Of a DNA stretch of 64,000 nt, positions 3,900 through 29,437 are shown in pieces. The translations under genes were made by a program, and so were the position numbers. The stretch covers positions 25,721-89,720 of the forward strand of contig CAZJFL010000006.1 of the NCBI GenBank assembly GCA_964545575.1. Reading direction: 5' to 3'. Positions within the stretch are counted from its first letter, which is position 1. Each line of letters begins with the position of its first letter. The notes beneath the pieces were generated by a model, which was not told the DNA's origin, did no database searches, and saw nothing but the letters and a program-made list of their open reading frames with translations. The DNA comes from an uncultured Planctomycetales bacterium (GTDB taxonomy: Bacteria > Omnitrophota > Gorgyraeia > Gygaellales > Profunditerraquicolaceae).

Positions 3900-5213
3900 A
3901 TGGAACAGCAAAGGACGATTGCCAGAGACGCCAGTTTAAAAGGCGTAGGCCTGCATACGGCTAAGGAAGTGAACATTACCTTTAAGCCGGCAGGCCTGGA
4001 CTGCGGTATCAATTTTATCCGCACGGATACAACACCCAGAGTCACGATTAAAGCCTCGGTGGATACGCTGTTATCTCAGTCGCGCTCACCCCGGCGCACC
4101 TCCATAGGCAAGGACGGTATAGAGGTGCATACCATCGAGCATCTGATGGCGGCCCTGTCGGGTTTGGGGATAGACAACCTGGATATTGAAATTAACAACG
4201 AAGAAGTCCCCGGTCTTGACGGCAGCAGCCTGAATTTTTTAAAAGCGCTTACTGATGCGGGCATTAAAGAGCAGGCTAAGGCGCGTCATTATTATCTGGT
4301 CAGAGACCCTATTTTTGTAGAAGAGCCCGGCGGCTCGATTGTAGTTTTGCCGGCGCAGGATTTCAGGATATCCTACACTTTAAGTTACGATCACCCGCTT
4401 TTAAAAGCGGAGTTTATGGAGTTGGGCATTAATGCGGATACCTTTAAGGATGAATTAGCTGCTTCGCGCACCTTCTGCCTGGAAGAAGAAGCGACGGAAT
4501 TGCAGCAGCAGGGTATTGGACAGGGCGCAAATTACGAGAATACTCTTGTCTTAGGCAAGACCGGGGTGCTGAAGAACAAACTGCGCTATGAGGATGAGTT
4601 CATCCGGCATAAGATACTGGATTTAATGGGCGATTTATACGTGCTGGGCCAACCGATAAAGGCTCACGTTATTGCTTTAAGGAGCGGGCACTCTTTGAAC
4701 CTGAAATTAATCAAGAAAATAGACCGGGAAAAGCAAAAGCAGTCTGCCGGAGGCATCGGCGCTTCCTACTCTCCGCCTGAAGGGCAGGAGCTGGGTGCGC
4801 CTGAGATTATGAAAATATTGCCGCACCGCGAGCCTTTCCTGTTTGTAGATAGAATAACTTCTTTGGAAAAAGGCAGGCGCGCCGTGGGGATAAAGAACGT
4901 TACCATAAACGATTATTTTTTTAAAGGGCATTTTCCCACCAGACCGGTGATGCCGGGGGTGCTGATTATCGAAGCTATGGCGCAGGTGGGCGGGGTGATG
5001 ATGCTTTCTCCGGAGGAGAATCAGGGTAAGATCGCTTATTTTATCGCTGCCGATAATATAAAGTTTAGAAAAACCGTGGTGCCGGGCGACCAGCTGGTGC
5101 TGGAAGTAGATGCCGGAAAAATTAAACCTAAGACCGGCCTGGTGCATGCTAAGGCAAAAGTAGAGGGAAAAGTGGTCGCCGAAGCAGACCTTAAGTTTGT
5201 TTTAACGGATTAA
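3900..5213 (+). CDS. lpxC-fabZ: Bifunctional UDP-3-O-acyl-GlcNAc deacetylase LpxC / 3-hydroxyacyl-ACP dehydratase FabZ fusion
   Basis: The N-terminal 280 aa have LpxC hallmarks (GVGLHTAKEV…HTIEHL). The C-terminal 140 aa form a FabZ hotdog domain (…GHFPTRPVMPGVLIIEAMAQ…). A Gly/Ser/Pro linker joins them. Confidence 0.9.
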   Translation: MEQQRTIARDASLKGVGLHTAKEVNITFKPAGLDCGINFIRTDTTPRVTIKASVDTLLSQSRSPRRTSIGKDGIEVHTIEHLMAALSGLGIDNLDIEINNEEVPGLDGSSLNFLKALTDAGIKEQAKARHYYLVRDPIFVEEPGGSIVVLPAQDFRISYTLSYDHPLLKAEFMELGINADTFKDELAASRTFCLEEEATELQQQGIGQGANYENTLVLGKTGVLKNKLRYEDEFIRHKILDLMGDLYVLGQPIKAHVIALRSGHSLNLKLIKKIDREKQKQSAGGIGASYSPPEGQELGAPEIMKILPHREPFLFVDRITSLEKGRRAVGIKNVTINDYFFKGHFPTRPVMPGVLIIEAMAQVGGVMMLSPEENQGKIAYFIAADNIKFRKTVVPGDQLVLEVDAGKIKPKTGLVHAKAKVEGKVVAEADLKFVLTD

Positions 5214-6071: not shown

Positions 6072-6875
6072 ATGGAAAAAATTGGTTTAATCGCCGGTAA
6101 CCGTAAGTTTCCCCTTCTTTTTTGCGCCGCCGCCAAGAAAAGAGCCTATCATATCGTGGCCGTAGCCATAAAAGGGGACACCTCGCCCGCTTTAAAAAAA
6201 CTCGTGGATAAAATATACTGGCTTAGGCTCGGCGAGTTCACCCGCCTTTTTGAGATCTTTAAGAAAGAAGGGGTCACTAAAGTAGTCATGGCCGGCCAGA
6301 TCAGCCCGCACCGCCTTTTTAGCAAAGAAGTAAGTAAAAATAAAGCAATACAGGATATCTTAAGCAGCATCAGAGATAAAAAAGCCGACACCATATTCGG
6401 CGCGATAGCGCAAAAGTTAAAAGACTCCGGGATTGAATTAGCGGACTCTACTATTTTTATGGAAGAGTTTCTTCCTGCCAAAGGCACACTCGCCAGGAGA
6501 GAGCCGGATTTTGCCGAATGGGAAGATATCCACTTTGGCTTAAGGCTAGCCAAAGAAATTGCTTATTTGGATATCGGCCAGAGCGTGGCGGTAAAACATA
6601 AAGCCGTAGTGGCGGTGGAAGCTCTGGAAGGCACGGATAATCTCATCCGCCGCGCCGGTAAAATTGCCGGAAAAGGCGCAGTCATGGTTAAGGTCAGTAA
6701 GCCAAAGCAGGACATGCGATTTGATATCCCGGTCATAGGTTTGACCACCGTAAAGAACCTGATCAAAGCAGGTGTCTGCTGCCTGGCCATTGAAGCCGAT
6801 AAAACTCTTTTTATTGACAAGGAAGCCAGCATAAGACTAGCCGATAAAAAAGGTCTCGCCATCGTCGCAGTATAA
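6072..6875 (+). CDS. lpxI: UDP-2,3-diacylglucosamine hydrolase LpxI (DUF1009 family)
   Basis: 267 aa. N-terminus MEKIGLIAGNRKFPLLF is typical of LpxI. Positioned after lpxA as in lpxA-lpxI-lpxB clusters. Confidence 0.7.
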   Translation: MEKIGLIAGNRKFPLLFCAAAKKRAYHIVAVAIKGDTSPALKKLVDKIYWLRLGEFTRLFEIFKKEGVTKVVMAGQISPHRLFSKEVSKNKAIQDILSSIRDKKADTIFGAIAQKLKDSGIELADSTIFMEEFLPAKGTLARREPDFAEWEDIHFGLRLAKEIAYLDIGQSVAVKHKAVVAVEALEGTDNLIRRAGKIAGKGAVMVKVSKPKQDMRFDIPVIGLTTVKNLIKAGVCCLAIEADKTLFIDKEASIRLADKKGLAIVAV

Positions 6876-6888
6876 ATTACCCCTTCAG

Positions 6889-6917
6889 TTGAAAAGCTAT
6901 CTTTTTCATGCTATACT
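6889..6917 (+). promoter_or_regulatory. Sigma70-like promoter (TTGAAA-17-TATACT)
   Basis: The hexamers and a 17-nt spacer are read directly. The predicted TSS coincides with the start of a 12-bp helix arm at 6925. Confidence 0.4.
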
Positions 6918-6924
6918 TTATATT

Positions 6925-7102
6925 GCCGATAAAGGCAAACCCGCCGAAAGGCGGGGGCGCAAAGCCGCAGGCCTAAGGCCGTGAGTTAACGTTGGACGGC
7001 TACGGTAGCTGGGCTGCCGAAGGAGGTCGAGAGGAGTGCTTTCGACTGGCCTTTATCGGCGGTCGTTTTACAAGGAATCCCAACATTTTGTTGGGATTTT
7101 TT
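6925..7102 (+). ncRNA. Candidate structured small RNA (about 178 nt) of unknown family
   Basis: A 12-bp perfect long-range helix (GCCGATAAAGGC 6925-6936 with GCCTTTATCGGC 7049-7060). It encloses a GNRA hairpin CCCGCC-GAAA-GGCGGG and other hairpins. It ends in an intrinsic-terminator-like hairpin plus T-run. Local GC looks well above that of flanking genes. Confidence 0.3.
7076..7102 (+). terminator. Rho-independent terminator-like hairpin (AATCCCAAC-ATTTT-GTTGGGATT + TTTTTTG)
   Basis: Perfect 9-bp stem with a 5-nt loop, followed by a T-run. Confidence 0.45.
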
Positions 7103-7127
7103 GTTAGCAACCCCGTCGATTTCCCAC

Positions 7128-7365
7128 CCATATATTTTGTGGGGCCTGTCTTGGCTATTTTCTCGCGGGGACGCTTGTTGCGTCCCAGCGTGCCGCAATT
7201 GCGTCCTTCGCTTACGCTTCAGGACGCAACCCCTCTTAGTAAGCGCATGGGCTGCGCTCGTCTCCAGCCCCTCGCTCTCACCGAGTATCTATTTAGCGGG
7301 TGAACCGTGCCCGCTCGGGGCTTCCGACGCCCCGCTCTAAAATAGCCAAGCCACCCACAAAATAT
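7128..7365. repeat. Roughly 238-bp segment bounded by about 33-nt imperfect terminal inverted repeats (MITE-like, or domain 2 of a large RNA)
   Basis: Left end ATATTTTGTGGGGCC…TTGGCTATTTTCTCGC matches the reverse complement of right end GCTCTAAAATAGCCAAGCCACCCACAAAATAT. This gives nested helices 7130-7143/7352-7363 and 7153-7161/7341-7349. The interior holds two 7-bp hairpins sharing GCGTCC arms and a three-way junction at 7289-7345. Confidence 0.4.
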
Positions 7366-7416
7366 CGAATTCGTTCAAAAACTCTCCAGATTCATTTTTT
7401 GATGGCTTAAGTTGCA

Positions 7417-7491
7417 TTTAGCGGGTGGCACGGGGATGCTTCGCGAGCGCTATCATAGCGCAAGAAGCGCCCCGTGACAGGACCCGCTAAA
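7417..7491 (+). repeat. Family-2 palindromic element TTTAGCGGGT…ACCCGCTAAA (about 75-nt extended hairpin)
   Basis: Four stacked perfect stem segments (10+7+5+6 bp). The conserved termini recur at 28610-28681 in the same sense relative to the downstream gene. A related unit lies at 7289-7345. Confidence 0.55.
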
Positions 7492-7572
7492 CTCTTACTT
7501 CTATTCGTAATAATACCTTATTATTGGCATTTTCTATTTCCATTTTAGATGAGCGGTGTTATAATACAATCT

Positions 7573-8790
7573 ATGTTAAAGTTTCCAGCTAACTTTCTCT
7601 GGGGCGCGGCGACTTCTGCCTATCAGGTAGAAGGTAGTAATACTAATAGCGACTGGTGGGAGTGGGAGAAGCGCACTGGCAGGGAATCTTCGGGTGATGC
7701 CTGCCGCCATTACGCACTCTACCGGCAGGATTTCGATTTAGCTAAAGCCCTTAACCATAATGCCCACCGTCTATCCCTGGAATGGAGCCGCATCGAGCCC
7801 GAAGAGGGCAAGTTTTCAGAGCAAGAGCTCAAACATTACAAAGATGTGATCTTAGCGCTTAAGGAGCGCGGCCTCCAACCTATTGTTACGCTGCATCATT
7901 TCAGCAACCCCATCTGGCTTACGCGTTTAGGCGGATGGGAGAATAAAAAAGCCGCGCAATATTTTTTGCGTTTTGTCGAGCGCGCGGTGAATGAATTAGC
8001 CGACCAGGTGCATTACTGGATTCCTATAAACGAACCGATGGTCTATGTGTATCATAGCTACATCGCCGGAGTCTGGCCGCCGCAGGAAAAATCATTCTCC
8101 AAAGCCAGGTTAGTGGAGAATAATTTAGCCGCCGCCCATCTTAAAGCATACAGGTTAATCCACGCCATTTATAAAAATAGAAAATTAAACCCTCCTTTGG
8201 TAGGTATCGCGCAAAACATGCAGGCGTTTATAGCTTGTCAGGCGACACTCAGGAATAAGCTGGCAGTGCGTTTAAGGGACAGGCTCTTTAACTTTGCTTT
8301 TATCGCCAGACTCACACAGAGGCGTGCCCTTGATTTTATCGGGGTTAATTATTATTCGCGCGGGCTGGTAGAAGTAAACCATTGGGGTTTTAAGCATCTC
8401 TTGCTGGATAATTGTAAGAATAATCACCTTCCGGTGCGTAAGAACTCTTTAGGGTGGGATATCTATCCGGCCGGCCTGTATGCGCTGCTTTTGAAACTAA
8501 AAAAATATAAACTCCCTATATTGATTTCAGAAAACGGCATCTGCACTGAAGACGATAATTTGCGCTGGGATTACATATCCGAACATTTAAAAAATATACA
8601 TTCGGCAATAGAAAAAGGGGTGCCGGTATTAGGTTACATTTATTGGTCGTTGATCGATAATTATGAATGGGATAAAGCCTTTACCCCGCGCTTCGGTATT
8701 ATCGCAGTGGATTATTCTACCTATAAACGCACGGTCAGGGAAAGCGGGAAAAAACTAGCCCTGGTCTGTCAGCATAACGCGCTGGATTAA
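7573..8790 (+). CDS. Glycoside hydrolase family 1 beta-glucosidase
   Basis: MLKFPANFLWGAATSAYQVEGS N-terminus, …NEP… acid/base motif and I(S/T)ENG nucleophile motif. The ORF track starts at 7549. The ATG at 7573 fits the family N-terminus and follows a TGtTATAAT element at 7557-7565. Confidence 0.85.
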   Translation: MLKFPANFLWGAATSAYQVEGSNTNSDWWEWEKRTGRESSGDACRHYALYRQDFDLAKALNHNAHRLSLEWSRIEPEEGKFSEQELKHYKDVILALKERGLQPIVTLHHFSNPIWLTRLGGWENKKAAQYFLRFVERAVNELADQVHYWIPINEPMVYVYHSYIAGVWPPQEKSFSKARLVENNLAAAHLKAYRLIHAIYKNRKLNPPLVGIAQNMQAFIACQATLRNKLAVRLRDRLFNFAFIARLTQRRALDFIGVNYYSRGLVEVNHWGFKHLLLDNCKNNHLPVRKNSLGWDIYPAGLYALLLKLKKYKLPILISENGICTEDDNLRWDYISEHLKNIHSAIEKGVPVLGYIYWSLIDNYEWDKAFTPRFGIIAVDYSTYKRTVRESGKKLALVCQHNALD

Positions 8791-28609: not shown

Positions 28610-28681
28610 TTTAGCGGGTCCTGTCGCGGCATGTTTCTCGTCGCATCATGCTCCTCAAAACACGCCGCGCCACCCGCTAAA
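28610..28681 (-). repeat. Family-2 palindromic element (TTTAGCGGGT…ACCCGCTAAA), second locus
   Basis: Termini are identical to those of 7417-7491. The interior diverges but remains hairpin-forming. It ends 7 nt before the thpR start codon. Confidence 0.55.
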
Positions 28682-28687
28682 AGAGGC

Positions 28688-29155
28688 TTATAAAATTTTT
28701 TTTAATAGCTGTAACGCTGCCATAACAGATTTCTTTCGCATAGTGCTACGGTTTCCGTTGAAGTGACGCCTTTCGCAAATGGTTGTATTTTTTGTAGTGA
28801 TGGCGATAAAGACTGTGCCGACTGGTTTATGCGGCGTGGCACCTGTCGGGCCGGCGATGCCGGTAATGCCTATGCCAAAATCGGTTTGGGATATTTTTCT
28901 TACTGATTCAGCCATTGCCATAGCTACCGGCTCCGAGACCGCGCCGTTTTTCCGTAGCTTTGCTGCCGCTATGCCCAAAACCGATGTCTTGCTTTTATTG
29001 CTGTAAGCCACTACGCCCAGCTTAAAATATTCTGAGCTGCCGGATAACTTTGTCAGCAGGCTAGAGAGCATCCCGCCGGTGCAGGATTCCGCTACGGAGA
29101 GGGTTTTTCCCCTGGCGATGAGTAGCCTATGAATTTTGGCGGTAATTTCTTTCAT
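28688..29155 (-). CDS. pncC: CinA C-terminal domain protein / nicotinamide-nucleotide amidohydrolase PncC
   Basis: LSVAESCTGGMLSSLLT motif, 155 aa. Confidence 0.85.
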   Translation of the reverse strand: MKEITAKIHRLLIARGKTLSVAESCTGGMLSSLLTKLSGSSEYFKLGVVAYSNKSKTSVLGIAAAKLRKNGAVSEPVAMAMAESVRKISQTDFGIGITGIAGPTGATPHKPVGTVFIAITTKNTTICERRHFNGNRSTMRKKSVMAALQLLKKIL

Positions 29156-29215: not shown

Positions 29216-29262
29216 AGAAAAAGATTAATCTTCAGGGCAAGGTGAAATTCCCGACCGGCGGT

Positions 29263-29348
29263 AGCGCAGAAACGCACACCAAACCATCAATTTGGTTTGG
29301 GTGTTAGCGCAGAAGCGCACACCAATTTATCCTATAAAATTGGGTGTT
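29263..29348 (+). repeat. Tandem duplicated roughly 43-nt insertion in the riboswitch P3 loop
   Basis: Unit 1 is AGCGCAGAAACGCACACCAAAccatcaaTTTGGTTTGGGTGTT. Unit 2 is AGCGCAGAAGCGCACACCAATTTatcctatAAAATTGGGTGTT. The P3 hairpin is usually short. The CACCMAA…TTGGGTGTTA motif resembles the family-1 SL2 module. Confidence 0.6.
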
Positions 29349-29437
29349 AAAGTCCGCGAGCCAAAAAGGCATGAACTGGTGCGAGTCCAGTACCGATGGT
29401 ATAGTCCAGAGGGGAGAAGATTGAAATTACCTTTATA

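Follow-up and report, generated by a model that had tools for sequence, protein, structure and literature searches.

A class-I c-di-GMP riboswitch unit upstream of a GH1 gene in Omnitrophota, with a predicted anti-aptamer helix apart from its terminator

Described c-di-GMP-I riboswitches and the locus in the window

The GEMM-I family (RF01051), exemplified by Vc2 of Vibrio cholerae, is a three-helix aptamer with a GAAA tetraloop on P1a and a receptor in P1b. In c-di-GMP-I aptamers, G20, A47 and C92 contact the ligand (PMC4744006, PMC5888326), and the role of the G20-equivalent position in the c-AMP-GMP subclass has also been described (PMC9481103). A c-di-GMP-I aptamer on a short non-coding transcript, unlike a classical leader, is carried by merRNA of Bdellovibrio bacteriovorus. 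This RNA, which has been suggested to act as a sponge or a store, is 445 nt long, massively expressed and without a conserved downstream ORF (PMC3627812). Vc2-dependent sRNA stability provides a precedent for a post-transcriptional output (bioRxiv 10.1101/617340). Furthermore, Bc1 of Bacillus thuringiensis, which has two terminators and a translational component, appears to be locked OFF in vivo whatever the c-di-GMP level (PMC11218506).

Here, we analyzed a contiguous stretch of 64,000 nucleotides (the window) from a genome of Omnitrophota, a phylum reputed to have predators and parasites among its members. We know of no cultured model for this phylum. A sequence-only reading of the window had pointed to positions 6925 to 7102 as a structured, riboswitch-like RNA with its own predicted promoter and terminator. 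We found that the element is a riboswitch, and that the same architecture occurs in seven Omnitrophota species. The Rfam covariance-model check that this reading had asked for shows that the element is not an unknown one, as it returned a c-di-GMP-I-type aptamer of clan CL00126 above the gathering score. The element is thus a known riboswitch class with a new member in Omnitrophota, ordinary in identity, and an apparent novel sRNA becomes an annotated c-di-GMP sensor.

Compared with GEMM-I RF01051, the window aptamer has the same three helices with the P1a tetraloop and P1b receptor, conserved equivalents of G20, A47 and C92, a conserved P1 with its bulged AA, a full-length model match and covarying stems. 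However, its P1 is very short (2-3 pairs), the complement of its 5' strand lies clear of the terminator, and the downstream gene has its own TATAAT. With merRNA it shares an aptamer on a short transcript, in a comparison made at the level of the aptamer, whereas the window unit is about 175 nt (predicted) and always lies beside a GH1 (family-1 glycoside hydrolase) gene. Bc1 is similar in its long platform and strong termination, but the window unit has one conserved terminator. Four other GEMM-I loci (the metagenome loci L127, L153 and L116, and L080) are OFF switches in which the 5' strand of the aptamer, CCGAUAAAGG, likewise has its complement further downstream, exclusive with ligand binding. 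In these four, the complement is part of a terminator arm, whereas in the window it is upstream of the terminator and separate from it.

Aptamer identity and subclass

To identify the element, the whole window was scanned with Rfam. Positions 6925 to 7022 (+ strand) matched clan CL00126 over the full model length, scoring 73.4 bits (E 1.7e-15) where the gathering score is 59; one more clan match was masked by clan competition, and only the family and score of the top member are displayed. We read 6925-7022 as a canonical class-I c-di-GMP sensor of the GAAA-tetraloop/receptor type.

The predicted P1a spans 6935-6960 (+) and includes the CCCGCC-GAAA-GGCGGG hairpin which had already been pointed out and which lies at 6940-6955, with its loop at 6946-6949. 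P1b spans 6963-7015 (+) and carries a receptor-like motif, CCUAAG (6972-6977) facing UACGG (7001-7005). The GAAA loop of P1a and the CCUAAG/UACGG blocks flanking P1b are candidate elements of a type 1 tetraloop/receptor. Alignment to the Rfam models placed the equivalents of Vc2 G20, A47 and C92 at G 6934, A 6961 and C 7017 (+), under a mapping of Vc2 numbering to model columns that draws in part on the Vc2 sequence. All three are invariant across the orthologs.

The aptamer fold is also supported by covariation among seven orthologs. Specifically, 99% of the cells are paired, five P1a pairs have changed on both sides, and P1b alternates between GC, GU and AU pairs at one place and between GU and AU at another. 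The observed value was reached by 0 of 500 shuffles, and sliding the partner columns by 1-3 positions left 27-47% of the cells paired.

The sequence-only reading had noted short stretches loosely resembling the guanidine-I (ykkC) blocks. This resemblance proved spurious. A permissive Rfam scan of 6850-7600 gave nothing credible besides the GEMM-I match, and the ykkC family was absent among all its matches at E <= 10. The CTAAGG block is part of the tetraloop-receptor region of GEMM-I. A ykkC-like element, or an undescribed sRNA outside the known families, has a negligible chance of being the right reading, as nothing speaks for it but a likeness of short blocks noted by eye, and the GEMM-I models align with the aptamer over its whole length.

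The subclass called for a closer comparison of two clan members. The best-scoring member for the window is not RF01051 but RF03167, "c-di-GMP-I-GGC", and the aptamer has almost all of the conserved positions of that variant. Its 73.4 bits, above the gathering score, could therefore be taken as support for a variant that senses a ligand other than c-di-GMP. The two families differ at the first unpaired nucleotide after P1a, where the consensus is GACGC-G-AAgCc in RF03167 and GACGC-A-AAgCc in RF01051. The window reads GGCGC-A-AAGCC, with A at 6961, and A is present in 6/6 orthologs. The G at the A47 equivalent that defines RF03167 is thus replaced by A in the window and in all six; equating the middle "G" of GGC with the A47 position was inferred from a comparison of the two Rfam consensus lines.

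The label itself proved a poor guide. A metagenome pattern scan that permitted either A or G at this position found A in 125/125 GEMM-I matches. When 17 A-carrying aptamers were scored, 12 received the RF03167 label and 5 the RF01051 label. The orthologs of the window element divide between the two labels as well, RF01051 being assigned to L223 (77.2 bits) and L212 (49.5 bits). The loci in this comparison were the orthologs and L082, L094, L106, L116, L127, L134 and L141. Since A-carrying aptamers often bear the RF03167 label and the orthologs are split, the GGC label can be traced to competition between almost identical models rather than to the binding site. We consider a GGC variant with a different ligand very improbable. 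More generally, RF03167 out-scores RF01051 on aptamers with a canonical site, and automated "GGC variant" calls need the defining base checked; the label by itself is no evidence for the variant.

The c-AMP-GMP riboswitch (GEMM-Ib) is disfavoured too. It needs A at the G20 equivalent, and position 6934 is a G that is invariant in the orthologs. Because G is kept at the G20 position together with the equivalents of A47 and C92, the aptamer is read as a canonical c-di-GMP sensor.

Some individual aptamers showed large insertions. In L212 (3707-3848), a 42-nt insertion with two extra predicted hairpins lies in the P1a 5' strand, and the locus keeps the GAAA hairpin, the downstream complement (segment Z, see below) and the terminator despite it. 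Elsewhere in the window, an FMN riboswitch aptamer was found at 29224-29425 (92.3 bits), with one of its stems interrupted by about 84 inserted nucleotides. A motif search of the window ORFs detected no GGDEF or EAL genes, in a 64-kb piece that is too small for this to be informative.

The transcription unit and its genomic neighbourhood

The unit has a fixed order of promoter, aptamer, variable hairpin, complement Z and invariant terminator, which is common to the seven Omnitrophota species. The TTGAAA-17-TATACT promoter named by the sequence-only reading is present at 6889-6917 (+), with its boxes at 6889-6894 and 6912-6917. It is of the sigma-70 type, has a TG before the -10 box and matches the consensus at 10 of 12 positions. 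All seven orthologs have TTGAAA-17-TATA(C/T)T at this place, and the first base of the aptamer follows 7-8 nt further 3'. In the window, the helix begins at 6925, 7 nt past the -10 box.

The 182-nt transcript was predicted to fold at -94.1 kcal/mol (z = -6.98), and none of 200 shuffles folded equally well. The predicted unit, i.e., promoter, helix and terminator together, is conserved in six orthologous loci of other Omnitrophota, far above chance. Within the expression platform, the hairpin H1 (7025-7047, +) differs in sequence among species and is retained at the same place. The linker between Z and the terminator is AU-rich, 12-25 nt long and not conserved in the seven orthologs. The transcription start, 3' end and termination efficiency of the unit are predictions.

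A small ORF was also considered in this region. It would start at GTG 7036 behind the Shine-Dalgarno-like AAGGAGG at 7020-7026 and run for 23 codons. The candidate was rejected, as its frame relative to Z differs in L216 and the peptide is not conserved.

In the window, the unit is preceded by a fused lpxC-fabZ gene, lpxA and lpxI, and is followed by GH1 and then by a gene whose 671-aa product combines a cNMP-binding and a patatin domain. The fusion is a single ORF at 3900-5213 encoding 437 aa with LpxC and FabZ-like (FabA family) domains, and the same fusion is present in related contigs.

It had been suggested to compare the regions downstream of lpxI in related genomes, and this turned out to be the wrong anchor. 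The LpxI relatives all came from Candidatus Omnitrophota MAGs, with identities of up to 74%. Pattern scans, including GGTAAAC forms, found the unit beside lpxI in 0 of 80 LpxI loci of other species. In one of these 80 loci (L080), a distinct GEMM-I unit lies downstream of lpxI, at a distance of about 3.6 kb. This Omnitrophota unit (L080:10400-10640) has a TTGACA-17-TATACT promoter and two terminators, its 5'-strand complement UUACCUUUA overlaps the 3' arm of the second terminator, and the 225-aa ORF downstream gave no Pfam match.

A search with the GH1 protein was more productive. Relatives at 64-70% identity led to six more loci in which the whole unit lies directly upstream of GH1. Contigs with an identical LpxI or GH1 protein (L201-L209) had spacers that were 100% identical and thus held no covariation information. 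Altogether, the unit is directly upstream of GH1 and co-oriented with it in 7/7 Omnitrophota species. Two GH1 loci, L218-L220 and L227, are without the unit. GH1 is in turn followed by a patatin gene in the window and in 5/6 orthologous loci; for L215, the sequence covered contains no patatin call. The upstream neighbour varies: it is lpxI in L212 and L213, a gene with a peptidoglycan-binding domain in L215, L221 and L223, and a set of opposite-strand genes in L216. The conserved partner of the unit is the downstream GH1 gene, not lpxI. Signalling by c-di-GMP at this conserved locus of GH1 and a cyclic-nucleotide-binding patatin offers a handle on the physiology of uncultured Omnitrophota.

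These neighbours also bear on whether the element is the 3'-UTR and terminator of the lpxC-fabZ/lpxA/lpxI operon. The unit starts only 50 nt past the lpxI stop codon with no terminator between them, and it adjoins lpxI again in L212 and L213. However, the unit's own promoter is conserved, the upstream genes of L215, L216, L221 and L223 are unrelated or divergent, and the LpxI loci of the other species have no adjoining unit. An lpx 3'-UTR element is therefore a poor prospect in our judgement.

Anti-aptamer helix, terminator and possible output

The predicted transcript opens with the 12-nt segment X (GCCGATAAAGGC, 6925-6936, +), which hardly varies among the orthologs. X covers the 5' strand of P1, the AAAG junction in which the G20 equivalent (6934) lies, and G-C at the base of P1a. 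Segment Z (DNA GCCTTTATCGGC, RNA GCCUUUAUCGGC, 7049-7060, +) is the perfect reverse complement of X. At 12 bp, X:Z is the longest such complement among the 108 GEMM-I aptamers compared.

The sequence-only reading had regarded this 12-bp helix as the closing stem of the functional fold. Its perfect complementarity and its start just past the promoter were confirmed, and its role was not. Since the 5' strand of P1, the G that contacts the ligand and the two basal pairs of P1a all draw on X, X:Z pairing excludes the binding-competent fold. In the folding models, X:Z is the predicted ligand-free conformer which disrupts the aptamer, rather than the closing stem of the sensor. RNAalifold predicted the helix independently. 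In folds of the seven orthologs, Z pairs with X when free, and with a purine-rich stretch 3' of P1 when the aptamer is blocked.

Conservation of the paired positions had been proposed as a deciding point, and these positions are conserved in the seven orthologs, both in the aptamer (at the 99% given above) and in X:Z, where 96.4% of the cells are paired. The core of Z, CUUU(A/G)UCGG, is kept in 7/7 orthologs, and its flanks are variable. Within the 10-bp core of X:Z, the seven orthologs show one-sided changes only, all of which preserve pairing (U-A to U-G, G-C to G-U, and C-G/U-G/U-A at the inner end). The suggested search for compensatory changes was thus borne out in P1a, with its five pairs changed on both sides, but not in X:Z, where the seven GH1-linked orthologs gave no double change. 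We attribute this to the X strand being fixed by its role in the aptamer. Selection on Z is argued from the conservation of Z while the sequence on either side is unalignable.

Near-matches to Z, as candidate targets in trans, were also counted. With up to two mismatches, the window contains 19 against 9.5 expected, including ACCGATAAAGGC at 4652-4663 inside the lpxC-fabZ coding sequence, which is complementary to Z at 11 of 12 positions. The excess is probably explained by codon composition, as the shuffles ignore codons and the motif GCC-GAT-AAA-GGC consists of common codons.

The hairpin terminator with an ATTTT loop and a T-run, as previously described from the letters, is present at 7076-7102 (+). 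Its DNA arms are AATCCCAAC (7076-7084) and GTTGGGATT (7090-7098), separated by ATTTT, and the T-run ends at 7102. In RNA, it reads AAUCCCAAC-AUUUU-GUUGGGAUU followed by the U-run. The stem AAUCCCAAC...GUUGGGAUUUUU is invariant in sequence in the seven species. Its core has 4 G-C pairs out of 9, and the A-rich 5' flank from 7070 is able to extend the stem. A consensus terminator scan missed this hairpin. We explain the miss by the A-rich flank pairing with the T-run, so that the maximal stem swallows the T-run.

To compare the terminator with the state of the aptamer, each of the seven orthologs was folded three times, once free, once under a block on the aptamer and once cut before the 3' arm of the terminator. 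The terminator was part of the minimum-energy fold in 7/7 orthologs, whether the aptamer was free or blocked. No antiterminator was found in the seven, and the folds cut before the 3' arm showed no competitor stronger than about -3 kcal/mol. Consequently, a terminator exclusive with an aptamer-dependent structure, as expected of a terminator/antiterminator riboswitch, was predicted in none of the seven by these thermodynamic folds. The switch thus appears uncoupled from the terminator on thermodynamic grounds, although kinetic or protein-mediated coupling, which such folding does not capture, may exist.

Specific antiterminator candidates were examined and rejected. Pairing of the terminator with the P1b 3' strand (CUGGGUUG), with Z or with the purine stretch after P1 gave at most 4-5 contiguous pairs, none of which is conserved or present in the folds. 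A second, weak terminator (a hairpin at 7043-7065 plus UUUU, to 7069) was also dropped, since it occurs only in the window, in L212 and loosely in L213.

Downstream of the terminator, a conserved TATAAT (7560-7565, + strand; feature 7560-7575) lies 7 nt before the conserved GH1 ATG at 7573. This ATG gives the 405-aa form of GH1 that is found in most database entries. In every ortholog, TATAAT stands 7-10 nt before the GH1 ATG, mostly with a preceding TG. Judging from this placement, it is a probable separate promoter of the GH1-patatin operon, although it might be only part of an AU-rich leader. In five species (L211, L213, L215, L216 and L221), the GH1 -10 box follows the TTGGGA in the 3' arm of the terminator at a distance of exactly 18 nt. 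The DNA of the terminator may thus act as the -35 box of the GH1 promoter as well, which could explain its invariant sequence.

We also inspected the translation signals. The gene starts at 3900, 5215, 6072 and 8791 have no Shine-Dalgarno-like sequence upstream and are preceded by A-rich sequence instead. Since genes of this genome lack a Shine-Dalgarno sequence, its absence before GH1 is no proof of a leaderless mRNA, and a read-through transcript could be translated.

Taken together, we lean towards the locus being a self-contained unit whose product is a discrete transcript, about 175 nt long, that adopts either of two conformers depending on c-di-GMP. Transcription would start from the unit's own promoter at 6889-6917, which is close to the consensus. 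Should c-di-GMP be captured during synthesis of the aptamer, X would stay in the aptamer, and Z would pair locally with the purine stretch after P1. Without ligand, the RNA would collapse to the closed 12-bp X:Z form, with loss of binding. Since the terminator overlaps neither conformer and is predicted in both, a discrete RNA is expected in either case, and its conformation would record the c-di-GMP level at the time of synthesis. We infer that the output is post-transcriptional and not control of the 7076-7102 terminator. Possible outputs would be RNA stability, ligand sequestration or action in trans, as proposed for Bdellovibrio merRNA.

The main alternative is a classical cis attenuator, in which c-di-GMP alters the passage of polymerase at 7076-7102 and thereby sets the expression of GH1 and the cNMP-binding patatin operon. 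Such an attenuator would fit the position of the unit, immediately upstream of and co-oriented with GH1 in seven species, and this constant linkage is the classic signature of a cis-acting riboswitch and an argument against a stand-alone unit. The terminator core is only moderately stable and, with its few G-C pairs, could allow substantial read-through into GH1, and the genome's lack of Shine-Dalgarno use would leave such an mRNA translatable.

The comparison with other GEMM-I loci bears on both readings. Few of the 108 other GEMM-I aptamers carry long complements of the same 5' strand. In L127, L153, L116 and L080, this complement overlaps a terminator arm and forms a recognisable long-range antiterminator design, which shows how an attenuator of this kind can be built. 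In the window, however, Z ends 15 nt short of the terminator core, from which a non-conserved linker separates it, and neither terminator arm has an alternative pairing in the seven orthologs. Furthermore, GH1 retains its own TATAAT 7-10 nt before its ATG, and repeat insertions part the unit from GH1 in three lineages. For these reasons, we regard a cis attenuator as less probable than the stand-alone unit, and as the foremost of the competing explanations.

The stand-alone unit is favoured because the terminator is predicted in both states, no antiterminator was found and GH1 has its own TATAAT; the fixed spacing of the unit promoter and the differing or divergent upstream genes give further support. 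The expression platform is unusual and possibly orphan-like, and its architecture is moderately interesting. With an anti-aptamer helix uncoupled from an invariant terminator, it presents a testable case in which a riboswitch would work as a terminated RNA instead of a leader.

A more specific version of the stand-alone unit is offered tentatively. The RNA may be a c-di-GMP-gated stand-alone sRNA of an Omnitrophota clade, fixed at synthesis as either a bound, open form or a 12-bp-clamped form, with the two forms differing in stability, in sequestration, or in exposure of Z and the linker for pairing in trans. If true, it would be a second riboswitch sRNA after Bdellovibrio merRNA, and one with a better-defined mechanism.

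Unrelated repeats, about 190-440 nt in length, have also entered the region between the terminator and GH1 in three lineages (the window, L212 and L223), and the unit is intact in all three. The window insertion is a MITE-like inverted repeat of about 240 nt at 7126-7366 (no strand assigned), outside the riboswitch, with arms at 7132-7170 and 7330-7365. It is not at this place in L213, L215, L216 and L221. Relatives of it occur at L022:8808-8985 and L029:7272-7452, with a partial match on the minus strand of the window at 28610-28691. Three short-read contigs of the same strain stop at about 7170, as expected of a multi-copy repeat. A second hairpin-forming repeat lies upstream of GH1 at 7416-7491; the sequence ATTTAGCGGGTG occurs at both 7291 and 7416, and the 3' end of this repeat, GGACCCGCTAAA, is also present upstream of GH1 in L210, a relative with 85% identity.
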